DNA from: an uncultured Christensenellaceae bacterium
GTDB lineage: Bacteria > Bacillota > Clostridia > Christensenellales > UBA3700
DNA length: 64,000 nucleotides
Assembly: GCA_944381365.1 (NCBI GenBank)
Contig: CALWKW010000002.1
Location: 257,952 to 321,951 of the forward strand
Direction of reading: 5' to 3'
Below, one piece after another: positions 15,316 to 32,465 of the stretch. The notes beneath the pieces are model-generated. The model saw only the letters and a program-made list of their open reading frames with translations. It had not been told where the DNA came from and did not search any database. Position numbers and translations under genes: made by a program. The stretch's first letter is position 1. Each line of letters starts with the position of its first letter.

Positions 15316-16183
15316 ACCCTAAATCCCTTGCCAAATCTGTCCATGAGTCATAATGTTTACCTCTAATGACTGCCGGTAGTGATTCATCATTTTCCATAGG
15401 ATGAATCGGTTTATGTTCTCTCCTTCTTATTGTTTTTTCCCAATAAAATTTATGCGTTTTGTTTTCGTCCAAATATTCTAAAAGTTCTTCCGAGTATTTT
15501 TCCAACGCGCGTTGTTTGTGAAGAATATTAAATCCTATTGGCATAAACTCATTAGCACATATTTTTACTTGGTGTTCTTTTTTCCAATAATAGGGTTTTC
15601 CTTGATTATACATTTTCAAATTTGAATCTCTAAAATTTGGATGTCCGAAATCTATAGTCTGCACCGGAATATCTAAGCTTTTTAGCATATTAGAGATGTC
15701 TATAACCATTTGCCAATTGCCTGGAATTTCAATGTAAACTCTATGGAATCCTTCTTGCCCATATGCCATATTACTACGTCGAATATAACCTGTCACATCA
15801 GCAATTCCGCGTAACAGCTCTTTTTTTTCGTCATTTGATAACGAGAACAATTCGCTATTCATTGTCATTGTAGAATGATGAACACCGTTTCCAATAAATC
15901 GCATAATTTCTCGCATCGTATAATCGGCATTTGGCTTGGTAAAAGATATTTGCGTAACTCTTTTCCCTTGAACAATAGGTAATGAGTGCCCAATCAATGG
16001 TTCAACAACGCACCGTATATCTGCTAAACTGCTTTTTACATATACGGAAACTTCACGCCCTTCATCGTCCCTTAAATTTTTATGAGGCAACTCTATCGTA
16101 ATTGTAGTTGTATCTTCTTTACGTTGCACCTCGCCGTTTCCTAAAATCATTCCAATTAAATATGCCATTTGCGCATTCATCAT
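15305..16183 (-). CDS. Double-motif LAGLIDADG-like protein with both catalytic acidic positions substituted (candidate DNA-recognition subunit)
   Basis: 292 aa. 'AYLIGMILGNGEV' aligns to LAGLIDADG with N at position 8. 'LLRGIADVTGYI' is a second motif with T at position 8. ATGA overlap with the C5-MTase gene. Confidence 0.4.
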   Translation of the reverse strand: MMNAQMAYLIGMILGNGEVQRKEDTTTITIELPHKNLRDDEGREVSVYVKSSLADIRCVVEPLIGHSLPIVQGKRVTQISFTKPNADYTMREIMRFIGNGVHHSTMTMNSELFSLSNDEKKELLRGIADVTGYIRRSNMAYGQEGFHRVYIEIPGNWQMVIDISNMLKSLDIPVQTIDFGHPNFRDSNLKMYNQGKPYYWKKEHQVKICANEFMPIGFNILHKQRALEKYSEELLEYLDENKTHKFYWEKTIRRREHKPIHPMENDESLPAVIRGKHYDSWTDLARDLGYGE

Positions 16184-17274
16184 TGTTCTCCTTGCTCGTC
16201 AACTGTATCATTATATATTTTATCAGCTATCGCCTTTGCCATCAATGGTGGAACAGCATTTCCTATTTGAGTACGCACTGCGACTTTTGTACCGTAAAAA
16301 ATATAGGTATCATCAAAAGATTGAATGCGTGCTGCCTCACGAGGAGTAATAGCGCGGTTCAATACCGGATGATTATTGGTTCCGTTAGAGGCCGCATCAA
16401 ATCTGGTATCTATCGTCGGAGAAGCTTCGTCCCATTTTAGGCGTCCCCAAGTTGAATGAAATTTTTGTTTGCCGAGAAGCTCTTCGGGTAAAAACTCTTT
16501 TCCTTTCTCAGGGGGGATCATCTGTAATTTTTGTATCGCAATTTGAGCATGATTGGAAGCCTTATGATTATATAGTTTTGCGCTATTTCTCCTCATCATT
16601 TTTTGATAATCAGTCGATGCTGGCAACCTATAATCTTGCTCAAAAGCTCCTTCTCCCGATTCCAAATATGCCAAATCACTTATTGCTTCACGAACAGTAA
16701 CAGTTTTACTGCAAGTCGGTAATGGCAAACATATTTTTTTATTCTTACAGCAAATGAAGATTGTTCTTTCTCTTGTTTGAGGAACGCCAAAATCACTTGC
16801 TTTTAATACGCCGACATCAACATTGTAACCGAGTTTATTTATTGCAGATATAATCTCTTCTTTAAACCAACCTTTAGATGTAGAAAGCAGAGTTTTAACA
16901 TTTTCAATAACAAAAACTTCCGGCTGTAACCTTTCTACCAATTTCAAATACTCAATGAAAAGAAAATTACGAGGATCCTTAAGTCCAAGTTTTTTTCCTT
17001 TCATAGAGTAACCCTGACACGGTGGCCCGCCAATTATCATATTGACTTTATATTTAAGAGATTGCTCTATTACTTCATTCTTCACTTCTTGCGTTTTAAT
17101 ATCGCCAACAATAACATGGACATCCGGCATATTCTTCTTAAGAGTAATAGCTAGTTTATCATTTATGTCTAAAGCGACAACTGTTTTGAAGTGGGGATTC
17201 AAATGCATCCCATAAGACATTCCACCTGCGCCACAAAACAAATCAAGTATTCTATAATTGACATCTATGTTCAT
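16180..17274 (-). CDS. DNA (cytosine-5)-methyltransferase
   Basis: Motif I 'DLFCGAGGMS', motif IV 'GGPPCQGYS', motif VI 'FVIENV', motif VIII 'QTRERTIFI', motif X 'QIGNAVPP'. Confidence 0.92.
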   Translation of the reverse strand: MNIDVNYRILDLFCGAGGMSYGMHLNPHFKTVVALDINDKLAITLKKNMPDVHVIVGDIKTQEVKNEVIEQSLKYKVNMIIGGPPCQGYSMKGKKLGLKDPRNFLFIEYLKLVERLQPEVFVIENVKTLLSTSKGWFKEEIISAINKLGYNVDVGVLKASDFGVPQTRERTIFICCKNKKICLPLPTCSKTVTVREAISDLAYLESGEGAFEQDYRLPASTDYQKMMRRNSAKLYNHKASNHAQIAIQKLQMIPPEKGKEFLPEELLGKQKFHSTWGRLKWDEASPTIDTRFDAASNGTNNHPVLNRAITPREAARIQSFDDTYIFYGTKVAVRTQIGNAVPPLMAKAIADKIYNDTVDEQGEQ

Positions 17275-18299
17275 TTAATCTTCTTCCTGATAAGTATTCT
17301 TTTGAAAATATCTTTTCCTTTGATTCTTGGCTTAAATAAGTCGAACTCATTATCGGAGCCATGATTTGCCTCACCAATTATTTCAAACTGAGAATCATTA
17401 TGATACTTTAGATAAGTAAGAGGAACTCCCATTATTCCCGTATAATCTGATGGAATTTCCAAAACTCTAGAAACATTTATAGCGTCAAAATCATCATACT
17501 TAGGATATTTTTCCGGATCGTACTTACAGGTTAAGACTAATTGCTGATGCTTACGTTCATTATCTAAATTGGTAAGCCACATTGCATTTCCTAAGCTACG
17601 CCATTTCTGCCCGGTTTCGTCGACCCAAAATCTATATTTTCTAGGTTGTGTATCATTCGGGACTTTAAAAGCCATATCGCCAAAACGGTAACCAATCCAA
17701 GCTTGCCCACTTTTAATGAAAGGAAAAATCTCTTTATAAGTTATAGCATTTTGATTGCCAATTAACAAGTATTGTTTCTTATATTTTACCAACAATGAGA
17801 ACAAGTCTATGAATTTAGAAAAAGGTGGATTTGTGACTACTATATCAGCCTCCTTAAGATATTCAACACATTCCTCACTTCTAAAATCGCCGTCACCTTT
17901 TAATTTCTTAACAACCTTTAATTTATTTATTAGATCTGTTATACTGTCACCATGAAGTAAGACTTCCTCAATATTAGGAAATTGTTCTACAACCATTACA
18001 TAAGCAGCATTATCTACTAGCGGAGAATAATTGTCATCTACTATAGTCGACTGAGCAACAATTCTTGATCCCTTATAAGAGGTACAAATTAATTTTTTTA
18101 GTTTCAGTGTATTAAAATTTTTCAAAAAATAGGTTGTAAAAGCAGATTTGTAAGGATCATCACAATTACATAAAACAACCTTTCCTTGAAATTGTTCAGA
18201 ATAATGAGAAATCTCCGACTCTACAGTTGCATAGTCGGTGTACCATTCGTCTGTGTTTTCAGTATATCTAGCTTTATTAAGTATAGAATTGTTTGCCAC
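17271..18299 (-). CDS. N6-adenine DNA methyltransferase, EcoRI-methylase-like family
   Basis: 'DEWYTDYATVE...GKVVLCNCDDP...GDFRSEE...ADIVVTNPPFSKF...LLIGNQNAITYKE...YPKYDDFDAINV' matches my recollection of the EcoRI_methylase family. NPPF catalytic motif. Confidence 0.75.
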   Translation of the reverse strand: MANNSILNKARYTENTDEWYTDYATVESEISHYSEQFQGKVVLCNCDDPYKSAFTTYFLKNFNTLKLKKLICTSYKGSRIVAQSTIVDDNYSPLVDNAAYVMVVEQFPNIEEVLLHGDSITDLINKLKVVKKLKGDGDFRSEECVEYLKEADIVVTNPPFSKFIDLFSLLVKYKKQYLLIGNQNAITYKEIFPFIKSGQAWIGYRFGDMAFKVPNDTQPRKYRFWVDETGQKWRSLGNAMWLTNLDNERKHQQLVLTCKYDPEKYPKYDDFDAINVSRVLEIPSDYTGIMGVPLTYLKYHNDSQFEIIGEANHGSDNEFDLFKPRIKGKDIFKRILIRKKIK

Positions 18300-18328: not shown

Positions 18329-18520
18329 TTAGTCATCAAACTGAATACCATTTTGTGCACAAAATTCATAAAACTTACGTTGCAATGCATAAGTAGGCTT
18401 TCGGACACCAAGCTCCCAACGATTTAATGAAGAGTGAGCTACACCAATCGCATCAGCAAATTCTTTTTGACTCATATGTATAGTCTCGCGTGCGCACTTG
18501 ACTTTGTCTTTAAATTCCAT
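18329..18520 (-). CDS. XRE-family helix-turn-helix regulator (C-protein-like controller of the MTase operon)
   Basis: 63 aa. 'MSQKEFADAIGVAHSSLNRWELGVRKPT' is a classic HTH_3. First gene of the operon, behind a strong promoter. Confidence 0.8.
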   Translation of the reverse strand: MEFKDKVKCARETIHMSQKEFADAIGVAHSSLNRWELGVRKPTYALQRKFYEFCAQNGIQFDD

Positions 18521-18600: not shown

Positions 18601-18667
18601 TTGACTATTATTATTTCGCACCAACAACATTTGCTCTCACTCTATTGATAGAATCTCAATTTGCAAC

Positions 18668-18835
18668 CGCGGCGTGTGCTTGTCTTGATACGAGAGCGGC
18701 GTCGCTCCGCTCCGCCGCGACAAGCACACGCCACGTAAACTTAACTCGACTGAAATACGGAAAAGCGGAGTGCTGACGGAAGCGGAGTCGCCCGCTGAAC
18801 CGCTTGGGCGATCTTCCGCTTTCACCGTCACACAT
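18668..18835. other. GC-rich hairpin plus iteron-like region (candidate rolling-circle origin or nick site for the adjacent HUH protein)
   Basis: 14-bp perfect inverted repeat GGCGTGTGCTTGTC (18671-18684) / GACAAGCACACGCC (18719-18732) with a 34-nt GC-rich loop. Direct repeats ACGGAA(AA)GCGGAGT at 18757-18771 and 18776-18788, plus an inverted partial copy CTTCCGCTT at 18813-18821. Lies directly 3' of the Rep gene. Confidence 0.45.
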
Positions 18836-18870
18836 TTTCCGTTTTTTGACCGTATTTTACCATTCGAAGT

Positions 18871-19920
18871 TCAGTTACATTTGCGCATTTGCTCGATGAC
18901 GGCTTTACTCACTTTGCCCATATAGCAGCCTTCGTCCCAGCACGAGAAATCGTCAAAAAGAAGCAGTTTCTTATCTTCAAGACCTATCGGACAGACGACA
19001 TCTTCGTCCATAATGTCCGAGATAAAGAATTGCGGCAATCCCTTAGAATAGACCATCTTTTCGCCTGTTTTCTCCATGTACTTTGTAAGATAAGCTATTG
19101 CTTCACCCAACATAGAACGATCGTCTACCGTTTTGAAATCGGATCTACCGAACCGTTTATTGAAATACGAGTTCTGTATTGTTGTCTGTACCTTCTTTTT
19201 GATAGGAGAATAGTCCTTGACTTCAACGAGTTCGCCCGGCATCGAGCCTTCGGGGATATAGAACAACCCGTGGAAATGCAGACGCTGTTTTTCGGGAGAG
19301 CGTTCCCATACGCCGACATACTTCCAATCTTTACGGTGGCACATCATTTTGAAACAGCCTTGAAGCTTCTTTTTGAAACTTTCTTCCGTGTGCTTTTCGC
19401 CGTCGTAGGTAAACGTGCAGAAATAGTTAAACTCCTGCAAATTAACCTTGCGGGTAAGCCTTACACGCCGACAAACAAGATTGCGTAATTTACGTTCAAA
19501 TTGCTCATTCACATACATTACCGTGCTTTTTTCGTCCTTAAAATACGGGTTCATGTTGTGAATGATAAATTTCTTCCTATCACTTCTGGTCTTTCCTGCA
19601 GTGGATTTATATAATTCCTCAAACAATTCCTTTCTTGTCATTGTCCTTACCTTCGGCTGTGATTCGGATTGCGGTTCAGACTCAGACTCTGACGATTCAA
19701 TATTTTTCTCAAGTGCAATAGGCGCATCGTCATTCTCCGACGGTGCGCTTTTAGTTGCCTTGCTATTTTCTTCTGTTTCGGTGGGCGGTTCGGCTTCTTT
19801 TTCCGTTACAACGATTTCTTCTTCCGGCGGTTTTTCCCGCCGCCTTGACGGCCTTGTCGTGTGCGGTATTCCTATGTAATGACTGCCGTCAAAGTAGATT
19901 TTACATTCGCCGTATGGCAT
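18871..19920 (-). CDS. HUH-superfamily rolling-circle replication initiator or relaxase-like protein
   Basis: Start at MPYGECKIY (ATG 19920 after GGAGG). Motif 1 'FCTFTYD', HUH motif 'LHFHGLFYI', Tyr motif 'AIAYLTKYMEK'. Acidic/Ser-rich linker near the N-terminus. Confidence 0.7.
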   Translation of the reverse strand: MPYGECKIYFDGSHYIGIPHTTRPSRRREKPPEEEIVVTEKEAEPPTETEENSKATKSAPSENDDAPIALEKNIESSESESEPQSESQPKVRTMTRKELFEELYKSTAGKTRSDRKKFIIHNMNPYFKDEKSTVMYVNEQFERKLRNLVCRRVRLTRKVNLQEFNYFCTFTYDGEKHTEESFKKKLQGCFKMMCHRKDWKYVGVWERSPEKQRLHFHGLFYIPEGSMPGELVEVKDYSPIKKKVQTTIQNSYFNKRFGRSDFKTVDDRSMLGEAIAYLTKYMEKTGEKMVYSKGLPQFFISDIMDEDVVCPIGLEDKKLLLFDDFSCWDEGCYMGKVSKAVIEQMRKCN

Positions 19921-19952
19921 AGATACCTCCTTTACAGGAGTACCGACCATCT

Positions 19953-22079
19953 TTACGCAGAACCCGTTTCGTCGGTATCCCTGTACAATGAATTGATAAA
20001 ATAACTGTTCTGCATTTTGAGCTCGTCAACGCTCGCTTTTTCGGTTACGTATTCGAGATAATCGCCGAGTCCGATATTTGTTTTCTTCGCCATATCGTTG
20101 AAATAATCGCTGAAACAGTCCGTCGAAAAACGGCGGCTGTAAATCTTCTTATTCATCAGATAATACTTCTTGTTTTCCGGCTTTCCGTCCATCGTGCCGC
20201 GCTCTTTTTCTATCTTCAAAACCGAATAGCCGAATCTGTTGAATATCCTTACGTTCCTGCGCCATATCCACGACGTTACGCATTTCAGCAAATGCACAAG
20301 CAACGTATTGTCGCCCCTGCGGAAACGGAAATCGTAGTACATGGCAATGAACCGGTTGAACGTCCATTCGCTTATCATTTCTTCTATCGTGTAGAACGGC
20401 AGCGCAAGTCTTTGCTCTCCCGATTGCACGATATGGATTATGTCGCACAGATCTCTTGCGTCGGCGCCCCAGCTTTCGGGCCGCTGTTCGTCCGTAAAGA
20501 CTTTGATGAACGGGAAATTATCCACCGTTGCCGAGTGACGGCACATTTTGAGCCACGCATTGAACAAGTCGTTTTTCTGATTTGTTTCTTCCGTTCCCTT
20601 CTTGACCTCTTTGAGCTCCAGATTATTGCCGCGCTCTTTGCCTATCTCCGAAATCGCCACAACGCCGAATTCAAAGCTGCCTGCCTTCGGGTTATTTTCT
20701 ATGACCTTTTTTCCGAGCCTTAACACATCGAAATCGAGGATATGCGCGTGCCTGCCTTCGGTAATCCCTTCGGGAAAAAAATCGGACGCCCAGATGGGAA
20801 AATTGCCTTCGCTTACAAGCTCGTTATCCTCTCGAATAGAATAGTTCGCCACGATAAGGCTGCTTTCGATAACATAGATGAAGTACGCCTGAGCGTATGT
20901 TTCCAACACTTCGAACAGAGTACTTACTTTCAGTCCGTCGTTAAAGGTCTGACCGTAACGGCAAATATCGTAGCCGTATAATTGCAGGTCCGTTCTGCCA
21001 TTCCTAAGGTAGCGATTTTCTTTCAGCTTTACCCATTCCTTGACCGTTGCAAGATTGTACACGGTGCCGTGTTCCATACAAAGCCTCAGTTCGTCCTCAA
21101 AAGCTATCCACGGGAACATAGGGAATTTCATATCGTTGTTTTTCAGAATGTCGTATGCCTTTTGTCGGAACATAACTTCCTGCGAGAGAGTCATATCCGT
21201 AATGAGCGTTGTCTTTTTCTTTCCCATACTTCCGCAAGAGATAGACACGATGGGTACTTCGTTGATAAACCCGCAATTACGGGCTTCGAAATGCCGCAGT
21301 CTGTTCAGGGCGATTGACTTTCTCCAACGGTTGAAGATGAGCCACGCTATCGTTGCAATACTCCACCACGGGAAGTGTCGGAAGATGACCTGCAAGTCGA
21401 TAAGTAGCTTGCACACCTGCGTATATATAGACGCGACGTCGAAGGACGCCGAAAAGTAAAAGTAATAGGCAAAGAATCCTAATACGATACTTACGAGATT
21501 GAGATGGAACGCCCACAGTACGAGCCAGCATATCCACAGCCAATTCGTGTGTTTCAGAAAATCGATATAGCCGAGTACGAACCGTTTTACAGGCTGATAT
21601 GTAGCACGAGATACCGATTTGAACACTTTAAGAGGCAGCGTATCTTTGTTGTGCTTCGTGTTTCCGCTTGCATAGAGCCGTTTCAACGCAAAGACAAATA
21701 CGAGCACGCAAGGGAGCGCAATCGCAATCACATTTGCCGCAACCGCCGATTTATCTCCGACCACCGACCAATAGCCGATGAAATTTTCCTTGTCTACAAA
21801 GAGTTCAAAAAACCGTGCCGCCGAAACCTTGAACGTATCAAAGTCCGAAGGGAGCAAGATATCCCACTTCATAACTTCCGACCAAGCATTTACGGCGGGA
21901 GCGGTATTGTGTGCGATGCCGAAGATCTCCGCGAAGTAAAACTTGATTGAATCTATCAGGTTGCCGCCTGCCTCGAACGCTCTGAGATAAGAAGACGAAA
22001 AGACGAAGAAGCCGAGAAGGACAAAGCCTACCGACACGATTGCCGAAAATATGATATTGACTGTTTTTCGTCTGTTCAT
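19953..22079 (-). CDS. Polytopic membrane protein with a C-terminal Zot/pI-like P-loop NTPase region
   Basis: 708 aa. The first ~260 aa contain several hydrophobic helices. These are followed by a deviant Walker A 'SCGSMGKKKTT', 'FGVVAISEIGKE', and 'WLKMCRHSATVDNFPFIKVFTDEQRPESWGADAR', which by eye parallels Ff pI 'LLVLDECG...FLHARKLGWDIIFLVQD...KQAR'. Confidence 0.45.
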   Translation of the reverse strand: MNRRKTVNIIFSAIVSVGFVLLGFFVFSSSYLRAFEAGGNLIDSIKFYFAEIFGIAHNTAPAVNAWSEVMKWDILLPSDFDTFKVSAARFFELFVDKENFIGYWSVVGDKSAVAANVIAIALPCVLVFVFALKRLYASGNTKHNKDTLPLKVFKSVSRATYQPVKRFVLGYIDFLKHTNWLWICWLVLWAFHLNLVSIVLGFFAYYFYFSASFDVASIYTQVCKLLIDLQVIFRHFPWWSIATIAWLIFNRWRKSIALNRLRHFEARNCGFINEVPIVSISCGSMGKKKTTLITDMTLSQEVMFRQKAYDILKNNDMKFPMFPWIAFEDELRLCMEHGTVYNLATVKEWVKLKENRYLRNGRTDLQLYGYDICRYGQTFNDGLKVSTLFEVLETYAQAYFIYVIESSLIVANYSIREDNELVSEGNFPIWASDFFPEGITEGRHAHILDFDVLRLGKKVIENNPKAGSFEFGVVAISEIGKERGNNLELKEVKKGTEETNQKNDLFNAWLKMCRHSATVDNFPFIKVFTDEQRPESWGADARDLCDIIHIVQSGEQRLALPFYTIEEMISEWTFNRFIAMYYDFRFRRGDNTLLVHLLKCVTSWIWRRNVRIFNRFGYSVLKIEKERGTMDGKPENKKYYLMNKKIYSRRFSTDCFSDYFNDMAKKTNIGLGDYLEYVTEKASVDELKMQNSYFINSLYRDTDETGSA

Positions 22080-22210
22080 AATACACCTCCTACCTGAGAG
22101 ATAATCGCTTGACCGTCGGTCAATCGGCTACCCGTATAGACGAGATAGCCGACGACCAAAACGGTCACGATTAAGAGGCATACGACAAGTATTCTCTTAA
22201 CCGTTTTCAT
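22076..22210 (-). CDS. Unannotated 44-aa single-TM protein, translationally coupled to the ATPase gene
   Basis: Hand translation: MKTVKRILVVCLLIVTVLVVGYLVYTGSRLTDGQAIISQVGGVL. Its TGA overlaps the ATG of 19953..22079 (ATGA). Below the ORF-track length cutoff. Confidence 0.55.
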   Translation of the reverse strand: MKTVKRILVVCLLIVTVLVVGYLVYTGSRLTDGQAIISQVGGVL

Positions 22211-22213
22211 TTG

Positions 22214-24229
22214 TTATTCCTCCTTTTTCTCACTTCGCTTTTTCTTTGCCTTGTCGATACTCTTGAACAGTGCGGCAATAGCCTTGAACGGCAACGAGAT
22301 AATCCAGAACAGTCCTTTAATGATCCACGGCAATACGGGGAACAGTAAGACTATCAAAAGGATAATCAGTAAGACCGCAAGCAGGATTTTCCACCACTCG
22401 GTATCGTCCGGCATCTGCACGGGCGGAGTAATCGAATTGACGATATCCATAGGACTTGAAACAACGGGTATGGCTTTGTACACACCGTCACGGTTAAAAG
22501 TGAGCTGAATAATGTCAAAATCCATAAACACGCTTTCCCATGCACGATACGCCTGTCCGCTCGTGTGTTTGTCGGGCAGAATGGTTCTCAGCTCCATAAT
22601 ATCGACCGCTGCGGAATAATAGTCGCTCGTCGCAAATCGGAACAGCACGACAACCTTTTCTTCATCGTCCTTGCCGCTTACCGTTACGGCGTCGTTGTAA
22701 TAGCTTTTCAGAGCGGGTACGTCCGCTGCGTTGATGAGCAGGCGTTCGGCAATTTCCTCGTCGCTTCCGTTCAGATCGCTTGCCTTGAGAGTATAAATGG
22801 GCGAAATCGTGCGGCTTTCTTCTTCCGGAATCTTACCGAATATCGTATCCCACAGCCCCCAGTTCAGCCAATTATCCCAGAACGATGGATTGCCTTCCTG
22901 CCAGCTCGTCAGCTTTTGCAAATCAACGTCCGCGTCAAAATCGTAATACGAATAGCCTTGCTGTATCTTGCCGAATTCCGTATCCATTTTGCGGTAATCG
23001 TCAATATCGTCGGCGAACAAGTCTGCGCTGATCGTTCCGTCTTTTATCGGCAACGTGCCTTTGTCGAAGGTCTTGTTGTAGTTCTTGATATACTCGTACA
23101 GGGCATTGCTTTCCACGCTGCCGATAGACACGATATCCGCATAGGGATCGTACTCCTCGATGTTGTTTACCTTGAACAGGTAATACAGCGTTTCGCAGGG
23201 GACGTGAAGATAATTCGTGCCGAGGTTCCAACCCCATTTTGCGACCATAACTCCGCCACCGCCGTCGCCTGCCTGTTGTCCGAGAGAAAGCACGGAATTG
23301 TAATAATCGTATCCGACGTGCTTGCCGACATAAGAGGACGCCTGATTGTAAAAATCCTGATTGCTCGTCACGACGATATCGTTGGTCTTGTACTCATACC
23401 ACTCAGCCTTGATGCGTTGCAGTCTGCCGTATGTATCGAAGAACCTCTGCGGAACGGCAAAATATACCGTGTCGAGCTGGTTCTGATAACCCGCGCCCTT
23501 AATGGAAGTCTTTGTACGGTAGAACGTGTGCTTGACGTCCAGCGTTATCGTTTCGAGGTATTCCACGGTACTTGTAAGCGTACTCTTAGCCGAAGCGTCG
23601 GGACCGTAGCCTTGCGAATAGCCCGTAAACCTAAATGTTCCGTTGACCGCATACTCGGTGGCGTTGTTGGCGCCGTATGTCATAAGCTCGATTCCGGAAA
23701 CGTCGTATCGGCGTTCGTTGCTGTTTACTCGGTCCGCAAAAGTCGTTCCGTTGATCTCTTTGTCAACCACCTTGAACTTGTAGAACAGGTTTTTATAGTT
23801 GCTGTCCTCGGACTTACTCAAAAACTGCAAGTCAAACTTCACATAGTCGTTTGGGTTGCCGTCTGCGTCATAAGAGGACGCCATTTGTATCTTATTGCTC
23901 TTGCTGCTCGTGGAGATGTTCAGACCTTTCGGATTGTAAACGTAGACGTACAACCCGTAGTTTCCACACATATTCGCTTTGTACGAATAGCAATACTCCA
24001 CGAAATTGATGATTTGTATATCTTTGCTTTCGTCGAAAGGATAGTCGTTGAGATCGAATGCCTCACCGCCGTCGGACGAAGATTTCAGATCGTCCAAAAC
24101 ATTGGTGGTATCGAAGTTCAACGCTTCCTCCGCATAAGCAATATTCGGCGCCGCCGTAGTGACGACGCCGAACAAAACCACGATGACAATAAGCAAAGAC
24201 AACGCTTTTACTTTAATTGCCGTGGTCAA
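22214..24229 (-). CDS. Large secreted protein with an N-terminal signal peptide and a C-terminal membrane anchor (function unknown)
   Basis: 671 aa. Signal 'LLIVIVVLFGVVTTAAPNIAYA/EE'. C-terminal hydrophobic 'WWKILLAVLLIILLIVLLFPVLPWIIKGLFWIISLPF' followed by a K/E-rich tail. 4-nt overlap with the upstream gene. Confidence 0.6.
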   Translation of the reverse strand: MTTAIKVKALSLLIVIVVLFGVVTTAAPNIAYAEEALNFDTTNVLDDLKSSSDGGEAFDLNDYPFDESKDIQIINFVEYCYSYKANMCGNYGLYVYVYNPKGLNISTSSKSNKIQMASSYDADGNPNDYVKFDLQFLSKSEDSNYKNLFYKFKVVDKEINGTTFADRVNSNERRYDVSGIELMTYGANNATEYAVNGTFRFTGYSQGYGPDASAKSTLTSTVEYLETITLDVKHTFYRTKTSIKGAGYQNQLDTVYFAVPQRFFDTYGRLQRIKAEWYEYKTNDIVVTSNQDFYNQASSYVGKHVGYDYYNSVLSLGQQAGDGGGGVMVAKWGWNLGTNYLHVPCETLYYLFKVNNIEEYDPYADIVSIGSVESNALYEYIKNYNKTFDKGTLPIKDGTISADLFADDIDDYRKMDTEFGKIQQGYSYYDFDADVDLQKLTSWQEGNPSFWDNWLNWGLWDTIFGKIPEEESRTISPIYTLKASDLNGSDEEIAERLLINAADVPALKSYYNDAVTVSGKDDEEKVVVLFRFATSDYYSAAVDIMELRTILPDKHTSGQAYRAWESVFMDFDIIQLTFNRDGVYKAIPVVSSPMDIVNSITPPVQMPDDTEWWKILLAVLLIILLIVLLFPVLPWIIKGLFWIISLPFKAIAALFKSIDKAKKKRSEKKEE

Positions 24230-24825
24230 AATACAATCACCTCCTGATCAAGTTCGACTCCTGCGACTTCTTCTATCACCGAGAAGTACAGCGTTACGCT
24301 GGATTCTCCGTTATAGGAAGTCACGATGAGCGAATACATATCGGTATAGCCTTTACCTTCGCATCCGCTGATCTCATTGTTGGGATAGACCGCCTGCAAC
24401 ACGTCGGTCACGGTACCTTTGGGGGTAAGCGTAAACGAGTTTTCTCCGTATTCGATATCGAAACCGGGCGTCAGATTTGTTTCCGCCTGAAACGAATAAA
24501 TTTGTCCGTCAAGCGAAAAATCAAAGTCCTTGCCGTCCACGACATGAGGTACAACCTTGACCGTATAGCCGCTGACGCCGCCTCCGGCTGAACCGAACGT
24601 ATATTTGACGTCAACATTTAACGGTTTTTCATTGGTTACCTCATAACCGCCTGCCGATGTAAGAACATCTTTACCGTCCACGGAGACGTAGAACGTCTTG
24701 AAACTGCTTGTAAAGCCACCCGTAAAACGAACGATTACGCCTATCACGCCCGCAAGAACCAAGACAACGAGAATATAGGCAATCACTTTTGCTACTGTTT
24801 TTCCTGTCTGTTTTGCGGAACTCAT
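24226..24825 (-). CDS. Membrane-anchored beta-rich protein (function unknown)
   Basis: 199 aa. N-terminal TM 'VIAYILVVLVLAGVIGVIV'. RBS GGAGGTG upstream. Confidence 0.55.
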   Translation of the reverse strand: MSSAKQTGKTVAKVIAYILVVLVLAGVIGVIVRFTGGFTSSFKTFYVSVDGKDVLTSAGGYEVTNEKPLNVDVKYTFGSAGGGVSGYTVKVVPHVVDGKDFDFSLDGQIYSFQAETNLTPGFDIEYGENSFTLTPKGTVTDVLQAVYPNNEISGCEGKGYTDMYSLIVTSYNGESSVTLYFSVIEEVAGVELDQEVIVF

Positions 24826-24840
24826 GGTTCACCTCCGTCA

Positions 24841-25857
24841 TCAGAATTTTAATGAACCCGATAAATTTACGCCGGTAACAACATTGTCATCAAAGCGCAA
24901 ATAAAATTTCTCGTACAAATTGGAGTTTTGTTCTATAACGGTTATTTCAAAATAAGCGTCTGAATCAACGGACTTTACCTTATCGTAATAATAAGTATTA
25001 CGCCCGCCGTCCAATCTCTGAGAATAACGATAATACCCTTCAATGGATTTCTTCGTTTCAACTACAAGACTGTTACCGGTCAAGTTCACGGATATAAGCT
25101 GATCTTTCAGTTCATTGACATTCGAAGTGTACTCATCGTGCCAGTCATCTCGAAGCGTCAAATTATTATGGTGCAACTCGCCCATAGTCAAATCGCCGTA
25201 TCCCACAACGAAAAATGAGTAATTGTTATACGATGAACCGACCTGATTAAAAGCGTTTTCGCATGCAACAGTAAACGTATAGGTAGTACCTACACCAAGC
25301 TTATACGAGGAACCAAGCGTATCATCGGACGTAGGAGAAATAGATCCGGAAAGCGAAATCGAACTCGGCAAGCCGACGAATTCAACAGAGCATTCGGCGC
25401 TATAGCCCCCTTCACGCGTAGTGCAGACAATCAAAATGACACCCGTAAAAGGTTTATGACAGGTTACCGTTGCTTCTGTGCTGCCGTCACCGGAAGGAGT
25501 TACGGTAATGTATTCCGACACGTCCGTTTCATTGCTTTCGTCGCCCCATTCGACAGACCAGTCAACAAGTTTGTTGGAGGCTGTTGCAGGAGTGACGGTA
25601 GCGGTAAGCGTTTTACTGACACTGCCGTTCTCCGAGTTCGCAACTGCCGCACTCATAGCGAGTTTTATGAACTCGGTATTCTGAATTTCGGCGGTAAAGT
25701 CATAAACCGGTGCTTGTTCCGCCGTTATTTCTCCGCTTGACGTTTCGGATGAATCTTTCGTTCCGCAAGCTACAAGTGTGACGGAAAGAATTGCTACAAG
25801 AACGACTGCGAGAATCGCAACCGCCCGTCTTTTCTTAGTTATAATGTTCGTATTCAT
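24841..25857 (-). CDS. Lipoprotein with a Big_2-like Ig domain (paralog of 25873..26943)
   Basis: 338 aa. Lipobox 'LVAC'. 'LTATVTPATASNKLVDWSVEW' is a Big_2-like signature. Shares 'VTVTP..DG...ATVTC..PF.G.IL' blocks with the neighbouring gene. Confidence 0.55.
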   Translation of the reverse strand: MNTNIITKKRRAVAILAVVLVAILSVTLVACGTKDSSETSSGEITAEQAPVYDFTAEIQNTEFIKLAMSAAVANSENGSVSKTLTATVTPATASNKLVDWSVEWGDESNETDVSEYITVTPSGDGSTEATVTCHKPFTGVILIVCTTREGGYSAECSVEFVGLPSSISLSGSISPTSDDTLGSSYKLGVGTTYTFTVACENAFNQVGSSYNNYSFFVVGYGDLTMGELHHNNLTLRDDWHDEYTSNVNELKDQLISVNLTGNSLVVETKKSIEGYYRYSQRLDGGRNTYYYDKVKSVDSDAYFEITVIEQNSNLYEKFYLRFDDNVVTGVNLSGSLKF

Positions 25858-25872
25858 GTTTTACCTCCTGTA

Positions 25873-26943
25873 TTAAAATCCGATTTTGACGTTGTTGAGA
25901 GTGACCGAGGACACCGAAACTTCCGGACGGAACCTTATCTTTTGGGTTGCTCCGCTGTTGGATTCGGTTACCGTAAGCTCGTAATACCAGTTGTCGTCCT
26001 CGTATGCTTTGAAGCTGTCGTAATAGGTAACCATTTGTCCGCTGCGCTGAGAGGAAGAATAATAACTCGTAAGCGTTGCGTTCGATTCGATAGACAGCGT
26101 ATTCCCGGAAATGGAATAGGCAAACACATAGGGAATGTAATTGGAAACCTTGGTGATATCGTTGATGGCAAGCGTCGCTTCCGTGCCGTCCACAAAAGTG
26201 TTAGTGTCCGTCAGACCGTTGTACTTTCTGTCTGCGGTGATGATGTTGCCGTACGCTCTGACGCTGTAAGTATAGTTGCAATCGGTACGCACGTCGTTAA
26301 ATCCGTTTTCACCGGAAAGCGTAAACGTATAGGTGCTGCCCGTAGGAAGCTTATAATACGCGCCGATGCTCGCATGGGAAGTCGTGCTGATGCCGTTCGC
26401 CGTAATTCTCAATGTTTCGGGTGCTCCGACATAAGACACAAGACACGTTGCAGACTTCTTGCCGCTGCGAGTTACGACCGTTACGAGGATATCGCCGTCA
26501 AACGGCTGATAGCAGGTTACGGTCGCCTTTAACGCTCCGTCCGAAGCGGGGGTGACGGTAACATAATCGGTTACGGTGCCGCTCGCCTGAGAGTCCGACC
26601 ATTCGATATACCAATCGACCGTTTTGTCCGCCACTTCTTCAGGGAAGATTGTAGCCGTCAGGTCTACCGACTTTGTATAACCGTTTACCGCAAGCGGAGA
26701 AGCCATATAATAGGGCTCGCTCACACGAAGCGTCATCACTTCGGTATTCTGCGGAATAACGGACAACTTATCGCCATCGCCTTGAACGTCGGTTATCTCC
26801 TGATCCTCAGGCGTGTTTTCTTTGTCGGGCAAAGCCATCACAAGCGCCGCAATCATACCCGCAAAAAGCACCGCGATCAGTATGAAAACGACAGCCCATT
26901 TGATGGCGTCCGACTTTTTATGTTGATTGAATTCGTTGTACAT
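25873..26943 (-). CDS. Membrane-anchored protein with a Big_2-like Ig domain (paralog of 24841..25857)
   Basis: 356 aa. N-terminal TM 'WAVVFILIAVLFAGMIAALVMAL'. 'LTATIFPEEVADKTVDWYIEW', 'VTVTPASDGALKATVTCYQPFDGDILV'. Confidence 0.55.
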   Translation of the reverse strand: MYNEFNQHKKSDAIKWAVVFILIAVLFAGMIAALVMALPDKENTPEDQEITDVQGDGDKLSVIPQNTEVMTLRVSEPYYMASPLAVNGYTKSVDLTATIFPEEVADKTVDWYIEWSDSQASGTVTDYVTVTPASDGALKATVTCYQPFDGDILVTVVTRSGKKSATCLVSYVGAPETLRITANGISTTSHASIGAYYKLPTGSTYTFTLSGENGFNDVRTDCNYTYSVRAYGNIITADRKYNGLTDTNTFVDGTEATLAINDITKVSNYIPYVFAYSISGNTLSIESNATLTSYYSSSQRSGQMVTYYDSFKAYEDDNWYYELTVTESNSGATQKIRFRPEVSVSSVTLNNVKIGF

Positions 26944-27032: not shown

Positions 27033-27389
27033 TTATCTGAGAAGCATATTCAGAAGCGATTTATCCGAGCTTCTGTAAGGCTTGACGGCACATTCGTAAA
27101 TCCCGCCGTCCTCGTCCACGGTCTGCACGGAATAGGTGTTGCCGGAAATGATTTTGCCGGTCGCTTCGTCCTTGATCTCGAAAGGCTTTGCAACGAGCTC
27201 GGCCACCATCTGATCCCCGAATACGATGTCGAGTACGGTATAGCCGCCTCTGTCGGGCGGAACGACGGCTACTTTGACGTCTTTGCCGCGGATATTGCCT
27301 TTGATGAAATATGAGAAGAAAGTTCTGCCGTTCTTCTCAAACGTCTCTCTTTCGACGAAAATCTGATTGTTTTGGTTGTTCTTTGCCAT
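27033..27389 (-). CDS. Small soluble protein of unknown function (ssDNA-binding or structural role is only a guess)
   Basis: 118 aa, predicted beta-rich, no TM. Followed by the hairpin CTGCGGTTTA/TAAACCGCAG at about 26978-27006. Confidence 0.4.
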   Translation of the reverse strand: MAKNNQNNQIFVERETFEKNGRTFFSYFIKGNIRGKDVKVAVVPPDRGGYTVLDIVFGDQMVAELVAKPFEIKDEATGKIISGNTYSVQTVDEDGGIYECAVKPYRSSDKSLLNMLLR

Positions 27390-27407
27390 TATCTGAAATC
27401 CTCCTGT

Positions 27408-27671
27408 TTATCCTTTTTTCTGCGAAATGGCTTTCGCTTCTGCTTTGCTTTTTCCTTCGGAAATTGCTTTCTTGTACTTGTAGATACCTGCGTGGTCGGT
27501 CTGGCACTGCAAATAGCCCGAACGCATACCGGCTTCGTAGTCGGTCAGTTCCTTGCCTTCCTTGGGACCGTAGGTATGTACCTTTGCTTTTCTGTCTGCC
27601 GCATATCCCTTTGCTCTTTTCGAGGGAACGGACCAACGACGTTTGTTGTACTTACTGTTTTTCTCTGCCAC
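27408..27671 (-). CDS. Small highly basic protein (unknown; possible nucleic-acid binder)
   Basis: GTG start at 27671, 8 nt after AGGAGG. 87 aa, rich in K/R ('KYNKRRWSVPSKRAKGYAADRKAK'). Confidence 0.5.
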   Translation of the reverse strand: MAEKNSKYNKRRWSVPSKRAKGYAADRKAKVHTYGPKEGKELTDYEAGMRSGYLQCQTDHAGIYKYKKAISEGKSKAEAKAISQKKG

Positions 27672-27863
27672 AGTAAAATCCTCCTGTAAAATGTGATTTG
27701 TTTTGCCCGTCACGCCGTTAGCACAGCTATTAAGTTGTATATGGTAACGAACGCTTCCACTTGGACCGCTGTCCTATGCGATTTCTTGCGGTGAGTGGCC
27801 ACTCTTATCCTTCGAAGTACCGCATAGGTTTCGCCAAATTTCACTGCGTTCGGTTACGCCGGT

Positions 27864-28405: not shown

Positions 28406-28804
28406 CTAATTCAAAAATTTTTTTATTTTTTCTAAAATTCGAGCAATTCTATTATTCAGTGCTTGTTTACAAATGGATAATTCAGCCGCTACTTCCGACT
28501 GCTTCCGTCCATAATAAAAGATCTGCTTAATAAGCCATTTTTGATCTTCGGTTAAAGTTTTTATAGCTTTACTTAATTGCTCAATATCGTACTTTTCAAA
28601 AAGTTTTTCTTCAACATTGCTGTTTGGATCAGCAACCTGAAACCCGGCTTCAACCATTCTCTCCAACGAACTGTCTTTTCGCTTCTTATCACGCCATATT
28701 TGACGGGCTTCTTCCGCCTCAATCTGTTCATACTGCCTTGCAAATTCGTCCGAAACTTCAACTTCGACAAACGTGCCATTGACTTCATACTTAATAGTTT
28801 TCAT
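28406..28804 (-). CDS. Sigma-70 region-4-like HTH regulator (conjugative-transposon/prophage type)
   Basis: Start at MKTIKYEVNG (ATG 28804). C-terminal 'LTEDQKWLIKQIFYYGRKQSEVAAELSICKQALNNRIARILEKIKKF' is a region-4 HTH pattern. Confidence 0.6.
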   Translation of the reverse strand: MKTIKYEVNGTFVEVEVSDEFARQYEQIEAEEARQIWRDKKRKDSSLERMVEAGFQVADPNSNVEEKLFEKYDIEQLSKAIKTLTEDQKWLIKQIFYYGRKQSEVAAELSICKQALNNRIARILEKIKKFLN

Positions 28805-28940
28805 TTGATTTCCTTTCCCCTTGTGCTCAATGGGGGGCGAGCGATTTTTCGTAAATCGCTGTCGGAAATCTCTGAAAATAAAAAAAGACCCGACAGCAGT
28901 GAACCAAATCACTGCCATCGGGAGAGAAAGCCTATTTTTG

Positions 28941-30016: not shown

Positions 30017-30625
30017 CTAAACAACGTCCTTGATAACCTTTATCACTATGCCTTGAATATCTATACTGTCGAAGAACATATCTTCCATTTTATCGTTTTC
30101 GGGATGCAGTCTTACTCTGTGTTTCTTCTTATCTAAATAAAAACGCTTTAACGTCGCTTCATCGTCAATCAAAGCAACGACAATTTGTCCTTCTTCGGCT
30201 GTATTCTGTTGCCTTACGATAACAAAATCCCCGTCCTCTATGTTTGCGTTAATCATACTGTCGCCGCAAGCGTGAAGAGCAAAGAACTTGCCGGGACCGA
30301 GTATCGAAGAAGAAATCGGGATATAACTCTCAATATTTTCTTCTGCGAGCATAGGGGTGCCGCAAGCAATGCTTCCTACTATCGGAACTCTCACGGTATC
30401 GGCTAATACCTTTGACATTTTTTTCGTTCTGATACCACGCCAACCTCCCGTTGTTTCAATCAACCCACGCTCTTTCATTGCTTGGAGATTGCGACTGACA
30501 TTACTTTTGTTTAACTTTATCGCGTCCGCTATCTCCTGCATTGTAGGCACTGTATTGTTGGCAAAGTAGTATTCGTCTATAAACTCAATAATCGAGTTAA
30601 AGACCGATTCGCTCATTACCTTCAT
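30017..30625 (-). CDS. LexA/CI-like repressor (winged-helix N-terminus plus S24 self-cleaving peptidase)
   Basis: 'MQEIADAIKLNKSNVSRNLQAMKERGLIE' HTH. S24 catalytic 'ACGDSM' (Ser) and 'EATLKRF' (Lys). Start chosen at ATG 30625. Confidence 0.8.
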   Translation of the reverse strand: MKVMSESVFNSIIEFIDEYYFANNTVPTMQEIADAIKLNKSNVSRNLQAMKERGLIETTGGWRGIRTKKMSKVLADTVRVPIVGSIACGTPMLAEENIESYIPISSSILGPGKFFALHACGDSMINANIEDGDFVIVRQQNTAEEGQIVVALIDDEATLKRFYLDKKKHRVRLHPENDKMEDMFFDSIDIQGIVIKVIKDVV

Positions 30626-30664
30626 AAAAAAATCCTGCTCTTTTGATTTATTACGCAATTTTTG

Positions 30665-30926: not shown

Positions 30927-32465
30927 ATGGAAAATTGTGTTATATATGCAAGATTCAGCTCCCACGGACAAAACGAACAAAGTATTGAAGCGCAGGTGCG
31001 TATTTGTAAGGAATATGCCGAAAACAAAGACTTTGACGTTGTCAATCTCTATACCGATAAAGCCAGAACGGGAACAAACGACGCTCGACCTGCTTTTCAG
31101 AAAATGATTGCGGACGCCAAAACCGGCGCTTTCCAGTACATCTTAGTTTATATGTTCGATAGGTTTGCCCGAAATCGCAGGGACAGCATTATCTATAAGG
31201 AAATGCTGAAAGACAAATACGGCGTCAAAGTCATATCCGCTTTGGAGCCGATTGCCGAAGACGAAGGCGGCGAATTTTATGAAATGTTCCTCGAATGGAA
31301 TGCCGAAAAATACAGCAAACGTCTTTCCAAAAGAGTACGCGATGGTCTTGACACTAGCATTGCAAATGGAACTTTTTGCGGAGGTTTTATCATTTACGGG
31401 TATAAACTCGAATTAGAGCCTGTCCCCGGAAAACAAGGCAAGTTTATCAAACGTGTTGTTATCAACGAAGAAGAAGCCAAAGTCATCCGCTATGTATTCG
31501 AACAATACGACAAAGGCGTAAGCAAAAAGCAAATTGCCGCCAATCTGAACGCACAAGGAATTCGTGTTAAAGGCAAGTCCATTTCGCACAAGACTTTCGA
31601 CAATTACATGAAGAACACGAAATACACCGGCGAATTCTATTTCGGTGAAAGGCTCTGCACAAATATGTATCCGCCGATCATCGATAAGGAGATGTTTGAA
31701 CGAGTACAACAGCGGCTTGCGAGCAATCGGTATTTTCTGGGCGGAAAGGAAACGGCAAAAGAACCTTACCTTCTGACAGGCAAATTATTCTGCGGACACT
31801 GCGGTACGGAAATGGTAGCCGGTGGCGGTAAAAGCAAGACGGGAAAAAAGTATTACTATTACGAATGCAAACAGAAGAAAAAGAAGCTTTGCACAAAAAG
31901 AATAGAACACAAAGATAAGCTCGAAAAATTCGTGGTACGGAGAGTGATCGATTTCTTGTCCGATGAAGTCAACTTGAATATCGTTACGCAAGACGTGTTG
32001 AAGTATTTTAACTCCCGCACAGACGAAAGAGAAATCAAGTCTATCCGAAAACGGATCGCCGATATACAAGAGGAAGCCGATGCGGCCGCTAATGCGTTCA
32101 TCGAGGCAAAAAGCCCGTTATTGAAACAGCGCATCGAAAAGCGTATGCAAGAATGCGAAGTATTGCTCGCAGACTTGGAAAAAGTAAAAGCCCGCCTCGT
32201 TATAGAGCGCGGACAAAAACTCACCGAACAGGATATCAAAGCATTCGTTAATATGATTTTGCAAGGTGATGTTGAGGACTTGGAATTCAGGCGGCGACTG
32301 ATAGACAATCTGGTCTATAAAGTCTATGTGAGCGATGACGACACCTATATCTATTTTAATATTAAGGGCGGCAATCATATCGAGGAGATTACTTTGGAAG
32401 ATACAAAAGCCGCTCTAAAAGAAGCTAATAGAGTTCAAACGCAACGTGACCCTGCCCGCCATTAG
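30927..32465 (+). CDS. Large serine recombinase (integrase)
   Basis: 512 aa. N-terminal resolvase catalytic domain 'VIYARFSSHGQNEQSIEAQ' and 'DRFARN'. Recombinase domain, zinc-ribbon 'CGHCG...YYYYECKQKKKKLC', coiled-coil C-terminus. Confidence 0.9.
   Translation: MENCVIYARFSSHGQNEQSIEAQVRICKEYAENKDFDVVNLYTDKARTGTNDARPAFQKMIADAKTGAFQYILVYMFDRFARNRRDSIIYKEMLKDKYGVKVISALEPIAEDEGGEFYEMFLEWNAEKYSKRLSKRVRDGLDTSIANGTFCGGFIIYGYKLELEPVPGKQGKFIKRVVINEEEAKVIRYVFEQYDKGVSKKQIAANLNAQGIRVKGKSISHKTFDNYMKNTKYTGEFYFGERLCTNMYPPIIDKEMFERVQQRLASNRYFLGGKETAKEPYLLTGKLFCGHCGTEMVAGGGKSKTGKKYYYYECKQKKKKLCTKRIEHKDKLEKFVVRRVIDFLSDEVNLNIVTQDVLKYFNSRTDEREIKSIRKRIADIQEEADAAANAFIEAKSPLLKQRIEKRMQECEVLLADLEKVKARLVIERGQKLTEQDIKAFVNMILQGDVEDLEFRRRLIDNLVYKVYVSDDDTYIYFNIKGGNHIEEITLEDTKAALKEANRVQTQRDPARH

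Follow-up and report, generated by a model that had tools for sequence, protein, structure and literature searches.

A large, unnamed family of P-loop ATPases with transmembrane helices ahead of the motor, encoded beside a rolling-circle Rep in gut Clostridia

A predicted protein of 708 amino acids (aa), encoded by an uncultured Christensenellaceae bacterium, raises a simple question: what is a nucleotide-binding P-loop doing behind a long run of hydrophobic helices, next to the gene for a rolling-circle Rep? The gene, which starts with ATG and which we call the ATPase gene, occupies positions 19953..22079 (minus strand) of a 64,000-nucleotide (nt) stretch of contig CALWKW010000002.1 (GenBank assembly GCA_944381365.1; forward-strand positions 257,952 to 321,951); this whole stretch is ‘the window’, and its numbering is used throughout. 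A first-pass annotation, made from the letters alone, had taken the product for a morphogenesis or translocation NTPase with an architecture inverted with respect to the pI/Zot proteins of filamentous phages. Our answer is that the protein represents a new, large and unnamed family with a familiar design—a P-loop motor behind transmembrane (TM) helices—and that, on a balance tilted slightly in favour, it is the membrane motor for DNA export or assembly of the element that carries it; a functional analogue of pI built on an FtsK-like layout.

The open reading frame (ORF) is not a product of chance, since it has thousands of homologous clusters: more than 2,864 were found at 90% identity and at least 1,159 at 50% identity (profile search of 1.84 billion representatives); an E-value <1e-30 was reached by 606 of the latter, almost all of them over the full length. 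A collection of 185,579 species-representative genomes contains 481 loci with the gene, mostly in gut Clostridia, with two to three copies of the locus in some metagenome-assembled genomes (MAGs). Named hosts are for the most part uncultured Clostridia (Christensenellaceae, Eubacteriales, Gallimonas, Subdoligranulum sp. CAG:314), recorded from the guts of humans, chickens, rabbits and ruminants. A few loci come from MAGs titled Parasutterella, Bacteroidales or Anaeroplasmataceae; because the other hosts are uniformly Clostridia, these labels more likely reflect binning contamination than real hosts.

Homologues carry no Pfam domain and no name beyond ‘hypothetical protein’. The query itself has no match in Pfam, PHROGs, NCBIfam, PADLOC or the sequences of the PDB; a PDB sequence search with a 122-sequence profile returned nothing meaningful, and ten long family members revealed no additional Pfam domain. 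Comparison of 63 diverse members with Pfam and PHROGs gave scattered sub-threshold matches only, at the level of the Walker A motif (AAA_25, AAA_22, T2SSE, DnaB-like, PhoH-like). The lack of any named-family match, together with the motif conservation set out below, bears out the earlier supposition that a functional NTPase at this locus would constitute a distinct family. The literature that we searched holds no description of the family or of the element type; an absence that is not in itself proof.

Conservation was read from an alignment of 138 representatives, 32–61% identical to the query. The Walker A motif, singled out in the first-pass annotation as deviant, does read GSMGKKKT in the query but this is not a trait of the family, the consensus being G283-x-M285-G286-x-G288-K289-T290, the canonical GxxGxGK[ST]. 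K289 is present in 138/138 sequences and T290 in 130/138 (94%), so that the GKKKT segment, whose conservation had been left for an alignment to decide, is indeed kept among homologues; G283 and M285 are each found in 120/138, and G286 in 116/138. Position 288 is glycine in 83/138 and lysine, as in the query, in 35/138, and on this alignment the query's odd motif is a lineage-specific substitution. The substitution could be taken as the mark of a catalytically dead P-loop relic, retained purely as a structural membrane protein, with lysine in place of the second glycine of GxxxxGK[ST]; yet the lysine, the threonine and both acidic blocks downstream are invariant or nearly so over the 138 sequences, of which 35 share the G-to-K change and have kept the other motifs. 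We consider a dead relic scarcely credible.

Of those two acidic blocks—VVAISE, which opens the longer VVAISEIGKERGN block, and IKVFTDEQR—it had been asked which is the invariant one. Both are conserved, and the either/or is probably a false alternative. In the first, E478 and N485 are found in 138/138 and K481 in 137/138, with E482 and R483 also conserved; in the second, R533 is found in 138/138, Q532 in 135/138 (98%) and D530 in 131/138 (95%), whilst position 531 is acidic in 116/138 (84%; E in 72, D in 44). The arrangement expected of a Walker B motif thus occurs twice, with strand 472–476 leading to E478 and strand 525–531 carrying D530. We regard E478 as the candidate catalytic glutamate and D530 as the candidate Walker B aspartate, accompanied by a putative sensor or arginine finger; as E478 is better conserved than residue 531, a RecA/F1-like geometry is plausible, with the catalytic glutamate on one strand and the Walker B aspartate on the next. 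Basic and aromatic residues conserved across the ATPase domain are F322, Y370, Y395, R416, R454, K481, R483 and R533. The gene also contains a 30-nt direct repeat (83% identity; window 20195–20224 and 20627–20656) that encodes a recurring peptide, E-I-G-K-E-R-G at residues 478–484 and E-K-E-R-G at residues 623–627, and which may represent either chance or an internal duplication.

The AlphaFold2 (AF2) model of the full-length protein, calculated from a 122-sequence alignment, is of high confidence (predicted local distance difference test, pLDDT, 94.6; predicted template-modelling score, pTM, 0.89), as is that of the isolated domain (residues 260–708; pLDDT 96.4, pTM 0.92). Following the chain, we see that residues 1–274 are entirely helical; strand 278–282, the P-loop and helix 289–318 come next (pLDDT >95 for the elements flanking the P-loop), then a helical/β-hairpin insertion, strands 472–476, 525–531 and 546–553 with helices between them and, finally, a C-terminal helical/β-hairpin region. 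Judged by this order of predicted secondary-structure elements, the P-loop fold that structure prediction had been expected either to reveal or to deny is supported: the model has a confident strand–P-loop–helix unit, followed by alternating strands and helices. The long inserts reported between the acidic blocks hold in part; the VVAISE and IKVFTDEQR blocks lie only 46 residues apart, but an insert of ~180 aa does exist, between the Walker A helix and VVAISE. From motifs and model together, the C-terminal 450 residues are probably a cytoplasmic P-loop NTPase of the additional-strand catalytic-glutamate (ASCE) division, with an insertion of ~150–180 aa after the Walker A helix, and the protein is very probably a functional P-loop NTPase.

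The ~260 hydrophobic, helical residues described ahead of the P-loop are evident both in hydropathy and in the AF2 model. In the query, strong hydrophobic stretches span residues 4–33, 109–139 and 180–213, and hydropathy averaged over the family brings out an additional stretch at 224–254; hydrophobic segments that make up an N-terminal membrane domain precede the Walker A motif in 124/124 full-length representatives. Several polar residues of this domain are conserved (R33, N194, Q221, D228). From a positive-inside pattern of the basic segments (basic loop 138–178, basic stretch 251–262) and a putatively even number of helices, about six, we infer an N-in/C-in topology that would place the ATPase domain in the cytoplasm. 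This TM-first order is not unprecedented, as it is the normal layout of FtsK/SpoIIIE and of the type IV coupling proteins, in which TM helices come first and the P-loop motor after.

Could the protein nonetheless be a true member of the Zot/pI family, rearranged such that its membrane part has moved to the N-terminus? Phage B5 of Propionibacterium, a filamentous phage of a Gram-positive host, encodes a Zot protein (Orf8; PF05707) at the same position of its module, and both are P-loop proteins of Rep-encoding elements; moreover, pI has been assigned to the FtsK-HerA superfamily (PMC6813254), and the best, if weak, structural matches of the ATPase are HerA and the packaging NTPase B204 of Sulfolobus turreted icosahedral virus 2 (STIV2). 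Against this, the Pfam Zot model gave no match to the query at E<=1 and is outside the 25 families most often matched by the 63 members, whilst hhalign against a 120-sequence Zot profile built from relatives of B5 Orf8 aligned only 13 columns around the P-loop, with a probability of 11%. Further hhalign comparisons with B5 Orf8, with ORF1 and ORF3 of the plasmavirus L2 and with STIV2 B204 likewise aligned the P-loop only, and no Zot/pI protein is among the 50 best Foldseek matches listed, for either the PDB or BFVD. In no case did the 112 B5-type Zot proteins with a Walker A motif show a hydrophobic segment ahead of it, and in five examples the motif lies near residue 20; in Zot/pI the P-loop is N-terminal and the membrane segment follows, as opposed to a Walker A at 283–290 behind ~260 hydrophobic residues in the ATPase. 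The inoviruses described from gut Firmicutes possess ordinary, stand-alone Zot domains (PMC8530359, PMC10061712, PMC9723715). A rearranged Zot is therefore very unlikely, and the homology that the wording ‘inverted pI’ presumes was not found by Pfam, hhalign or Foldseek; the phrase is an analogy and not a demonstrated relationship.

Foldseek searches of the PDB, with both the full-length and the domain-only model, returned no match with an E-value <0.01, the domain-only model being no sharper. The best-ranked, non-significant matches are HerA (E 0.035–0.1) and STIV2 B204 (E 0.14); matches of this FtsK-HerA type have E-values of 0.035–0.3 and are partial, covering 87–111 residues at a probability of 0.87–0.90 and with TM-scores of 0.1–0.3. 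Further weak matches are to AAA+ proteins, among them the unfoldases katanin, Vps4 and Msp1, and to F1, EscN, EccC and TcpA (E 1.8). In BFVD, the unnamed 269-aa protein A0A894JLK1 matches with an E-value of 3.3e-4 (probability 1.0, target TM 0.50) and ORF286 of Acidianus two-tailed virus (ATV) with an E-value of 0.09. These two are the only structural matches near significance; unlike the ATPase, both are short, of soluble size, without a membrane domain and without an annotated function, and A0A894JLK1 is not mentioned in the literature that we searched.

The ATPase gene probably sits in an integrated element of ~14 kb, roughly window 18.65–32.5 kb (Table 1), the region around it having a G+C fraction of 0.46–0.48 as against ~0.35 in the flanks. 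In a survey of 88 related loci, taken from genomes and metagenomes and with missing genes mostly attributable to contig ends, we see a near-fixed order: p101, p118, p356/p338, p199, p671, a small TM protein, the ATPase and Rep. Rep adjoins the ATPase in 85/88 loci, the gap usually being <60 nt, and a homologue of p671 lies upstream of the ATPase in 80/88. The G2P/ORF2 family to which Rep belongs is named for the Reps of filamentous phages and plectroviruses. No second P-loop gene was found in the element, and the ATPase is its only NTPase. A role in defence was considered and rejected, given the lack of a PADLOC match and the strict context of Rep and structural genes.

The ATG of the ATPase and the stop codon (TGA) of a 44-aa ORF overlap in the 4-nt sequence ATGA, just as the first-pass annotation had it, with an AGGAGG Shine-Dalgarno sequence 6 nt 5' of the start. 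Tight spacing of this kind is found all along the operon, with intergenic distances of −4, 3, −4, 15, 15 and 2 nt (the p199/p671 junction being another −4 nt overlap); since 4-nt overlaps or gaps of 2–15 nt recur throughout, translational coupling is a property of the operon as a whole and is not peculiar to this pair of genes. The motif of the small TM protein, MKTxKRI-TM-GYxVYTG, is kept directly 5' of the ATPase in ~55 related loci and, in relatives of 32–35% identity, forms the N-terminus of proteins of 120–124 aa. Further upstream, p199 and p356 are N-anchored and p338 has a lipobox (LVAC). The adjacent genes for p338 and p356 (24841–26943) are paralogues with weak Big_2-like signals; many related elements have a single copy.

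Table 1. Features of the ATPase gene and of the element around it, in window coordinates.
Feature	Position	Strand	Basis and remarks
Membrane-anchored P-loop NTPase, 708 aa	19953..22079	-	ORF; full-length homologues; AF2 pLDDT 94.6, pTM 0.89
N-terminal membrane domain, residues 1–258, ~6 hydrophobic helices	21306..22079	-	Query and family hydropathy; all-helical in AF2
Walker A/P-loop GSMGKKKT, residues 283–290	21210..21233	-	Translation; between strand 278–282 and helix 289–318
VVAISEIGKERGN block, residues 473–485 (VVAISE = 473–478)	20625..20663	-	Translation; strand 472–476, then E478, K481, E482, R483, N485
IKVFTDEQR block, residues 525–533	20481..20507	-	Translation; hydrophobic strand 525–531, then D530, E/D531, Q532, R533
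HUH rolling-circle Rep, 2 nt 3' of the ATPase gene	18871..19950	-	PF23343 REP_ORF2-G2P, E 1.1e-11, 45.3 bits (cutoff 27.8)
44-aa N-anchored single-TM protein	22076..22210	-	ATGA overlap; motif MKTxKRI-TM-GYxVYTG
p671, 671 aa; signal-like N-terminus, C-terminal TM helix, basic tail	22214..24229	-	Gene III-like position; no family match
p199, p338 and p356, membrane-anchored	24226..26943	-	In 61–69/88 loci, many ended by contig ends
p118 and very basic p101, upstream of the membrane-protein genes	27033..27713	-	In 64 and 61/88 loci; no family match
LexA/S24-type repressor at the head of the module	30017..30658	-	Peptidase_S24 E 1.9e-30, LexA_DNA_bind; 23 loci with enough upstream sequence
Large serine recombinase, divergent from the repressor	30927..32465	+	Resolvase + Recombinase + Zn_ribbon_recom
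Hairpin-rich non-coding end	18656..18870	-	Kept in ~55 loci; candidate origin, packaging signal or element end

Alternatively, the ATPase might power a step that does not involve DNA: the element's own membrane and secreted proteins might need it for their insertion, secretion or assembly, or an enveloped, pleomorphic particle for membrane remodelling or budding. In favour of this, four genes whose products are anchored or secreted precede it in a tightly coupled unit, its product has a large membrane domain with conserved polar residues, and katanin, Vps4 and Msp1 figure among the weak structural matches. Saying this, the best-ranked matches are DNA pumps and packaging enzymes rather than protein unfoldases, the many invariant basic and aromatic residues could fit nucleic-acid binding, and the gene is directly coupled to that of Rep. 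We judge a non-DNA role to be improbable.

At the far end of the element, a LexA-like repressor and a large serine recombinase, presumably the integrase, probably make up a lysogeny and integration module, and their position and orientation are repeated in ~10 related loci; this pairing is typical of temperate elements. The basic p101 and its neighbour p118 are candidate DNA-binding proteins. A small protein with a sigma-70 region-4-like signature (window 28406–28918; TIGR02937, E 1.2e-8) is encoded between the repressor and the structural genes; it has counterparts in ~19 loci and is a possible late-gene activator belonging to the element itself. Just beyond the opposite end lie a small helix-turn-helix gene (18329–18520) and two overlapping genes for DNA methyltransferase-like proteins (16180–17274, with the C5-methyltransferase motif GGPPCQG, and 17271–18299); at one locus from another host (L004) the same side of the element adjoins SNF2/DndB-type defence genes. 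These elements may sit in or beside defence islands.

Beyond the stop codon of Rep, homology between elements persists for ~200–215 nt and stops near window 18656, a few nt past a terminal hairpin. Folded as single-stranded DNA (ssDNA), this non-coding end reaches −68.6 kcal/mol (z = −9.1). The terminal hairpin (18668–18735) has an invariant stem, GCGTGTGCTTGTC/GACAAGCACACGC, and a conserved loop, CT[CT]GTATCAAGAC; compensatory changes, noted by eye and unscored, are apparent at the foot of the hairpin and in an inner mini-hairpin. Metagenome loci L124, L145, L154, L167 and L169 also have this hairpin 5' of a Rep homologue, at a distance of >400 nt. Several loci of this hairpin–Rep type, of which there are 11 in all, have a serine recombinase adjoining Rep, with neither the ATPase nor structural genes within reach. 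They may represent a second, smaller type of element, or a satellite, sharing the Rep and origin module.

How might these parts work together? We favour a DNA-motor role for the ATPase because of its conserved motifs, its membrane domain and small TM partner, its neighbours (Rep and the anchored proteins) and its standing as the sole NTPase of the element; and we liken it to pI because of the B5-like gene order, the G2P/ORF2-type Rep, the ssDNA-folding end and the combination of LexA-like repressor and serine integrase. In filamentous phages pI is the assembly motor, and the channel is supplied by pI/pXI (plus pIV). By analogy, and with an ATPase that is either unrelated to pI or diverged from it beyond recognition, the hairpin would be the origin from which Rep initiates rolling-circle replication; the ATPase, as an oligomer and together with the small TM protein translated alongside it, would spend ATP on bringing the DNA to or through the membrane; and the element's membrane-inserted or anchored proteins would assemble around the DNA as it leaves the cell. 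The N-terminal membrane domain would then serve as the channel in a host with a single membrane.

In a rival reading the integrative element is not viral and the ATPase is its conjugation-type translocase, an FtsK/TraB-like or coupling-protein-like pump that passes Rep-nicked DNA into a neighbouring cell, with the surface proteins acting as adhesins. FtsK/SpoIIIE and the type IV coupling proteins likewise have their TM helices ahead of the ATPase; HerA, EccC and TcpA are among the weak Foldseek matches; the element is nearly absent from viral collections; and an integrase and a repressor are present, as in integrative and conjugative elements (ICEs) and integrative and mobilisable elements (IMEs). 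We nevertheless think such a pump unlikely. No FtsK_SpoIIIE, T4SS-DNA_transf, TraG or TrwB hidden Markov model (HMM) matches the query, nor are these among the families recurrent in the 63 members; neither a VirB4-like or other additional ATPase nor any further gene recognisable as part of a type IV secretion system is encoded by the element; no plasmid carries the ATPase gene when searched with tblastn; and Rep is of the phage G2P/ORF2 type and not of a relaxase family.

The elements may be viral. We put forward, tentatively and as something rather less probable than the motor role itself, that they form an unrecognised lineage of temperate phages without tails that infect gut Clostridia (Christensenellaceae, Eubacteriales and their relatives). 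Such phages would be either filamentous or enveloped and pleomorphic, their genome probably being ssDNA, and would leave the cell through a protein, not homologous to Zot, in which channel and ATPase are fused. Detection of filamentous phages depends on the Zot/pI marker (PMC6813254), and an exporter of another kind would explain how the elements escaped inovirus detectors and viral databases. Measured against the criteria for inoviruses (Tubulavirales) of Roux et al. 2019 (PMC6813254), the element does combine a rolling-circle Rep with a structured intergenic region (PF23343; ssDNA fold z = −9.1); no pI-like (Zot) marker is found among its gene products scanned and, where several single-TM proteins of 30–90 aa are expected, the 44-aa ORF is the one that falls in this range, the remaining anchored proteins being 199–671 aa long.

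Several observations count against the reading as a pI-like motor. For the set of 30–90-aa single-TM coat proteins typical of inoviruses the element offers a single candidate, the 44-aa ORF, and the charge polarity of this ORF is opposite to that of known coat proteins. There is no experimental or virome evidence of particles; the ATPase gene occurs in 2 of 2.9 million IMG/VR contigs, in both cases within much larger contigs; and the phage collection, searched by megablast and tblastn, yielded only MT835493, an unannotated 57-kb record marked ‘unverified’. Amongst ~200 loci we found no circular contig and no terminal redundancy, nor any contig in which the hairpin and recombinase ends meet. 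Lastly, with no PDB structural match reaching significance, the assignment of the ATPase to the DNA-pumping clade is weak.

An element that encodes Rep together with a membrane ATPase other than Zot would be missed by Zot-based tools although it is common. Were the ATPase an export or assembly motor, it would provide a new marker gene with which to mine this class of element, an example of a compact, one-polypeptide channel-plus-motor for the export of DNA across a single membrane, and a possible link between phage assembly of the pI type and pumps of the FtsK/HerA type. Were the element conjugative instead, Firmicutes would possess in it a minimal system for DNA transfer with a single ATPase, much like the TraB systems of actinomycetes.

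The plasmavirus L2, a 12-kb enveloped virus of Mollicutes, resembles the element in size, in having its genes on one strand, in its integrase and in its large envelope proteins, which have both signal peptides and Ig-like domains. By contrast, L2 ORF1 and ORF3 are not similar to the ATPase family, tblastn of the phage collection gave no match to L2, the L2 record has no annotated Rep and Pfam finds none in its ORF1, ORF3 or ORF13; close kinship was rejected for want of any similarity. A packaging ATPase of the corticovirus or tectivirus kind was likewise rejected, our scans having returned no capsid-protein match of any kind.

With VirD4, TraD and TcpA the ATPase shares N-terminal TM helices with the P-loop domain behind them in the cytoplasm, residence in a mobile element and an adjoining gene for a nicking enzyme; it differs in giving no HMM match, in its poor Foldseek score against TcpA, and in belonging to an element without type IV secretion genes that was not found on plasmids. 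The FtsK-HerA pumps are its top-ranked, though non-significant, structural neighbours: like FtsK/SpoIIIE, it combines N-terminal TM helices with a C-terminal motor, and its hhhxD-[E/D]-Q-R motif, in which h is hydrophobic, recalls their Walker B plus sensor or arginine finger. Unlike them, it has no HMM match, its best Foldseek E-value is 0.035 and its hhalign alignment with B204 is confined to the P-loop; an acidic residue at position 531 is kept in no more than 84% of sequences whilst E478, on the preceding strand, is invariant, an arrangement that appears closer to the geometry of the RecA/F1 type.

Set against pI/Zot, the ATPase has the reverse of the domain order of Ff pI, large insertions, a polytopic membrane domain of 260 aa where pI/Zot has none or one helix, a length of 708 aa as compared with ~250–430 aa, and no detectable sequence kinship beyond the Walker A. 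The likeness lies instead in position and probable role: in both cases a gene for a P-loop NTPase has those for anchored structural proteins on one side and that for the Rep of a small element on the other, and in both a membrane-associated role would be served with a small membrane partner encoded at its start (cf. pXI). In phage B5 the order of Orf6 (485 aa), Orf7 (90 aa), Orf8 (Zot) and Orf9 (Rep) is matched in our element by the large anchored p671, the small TM protein, the ATPase and Rep.

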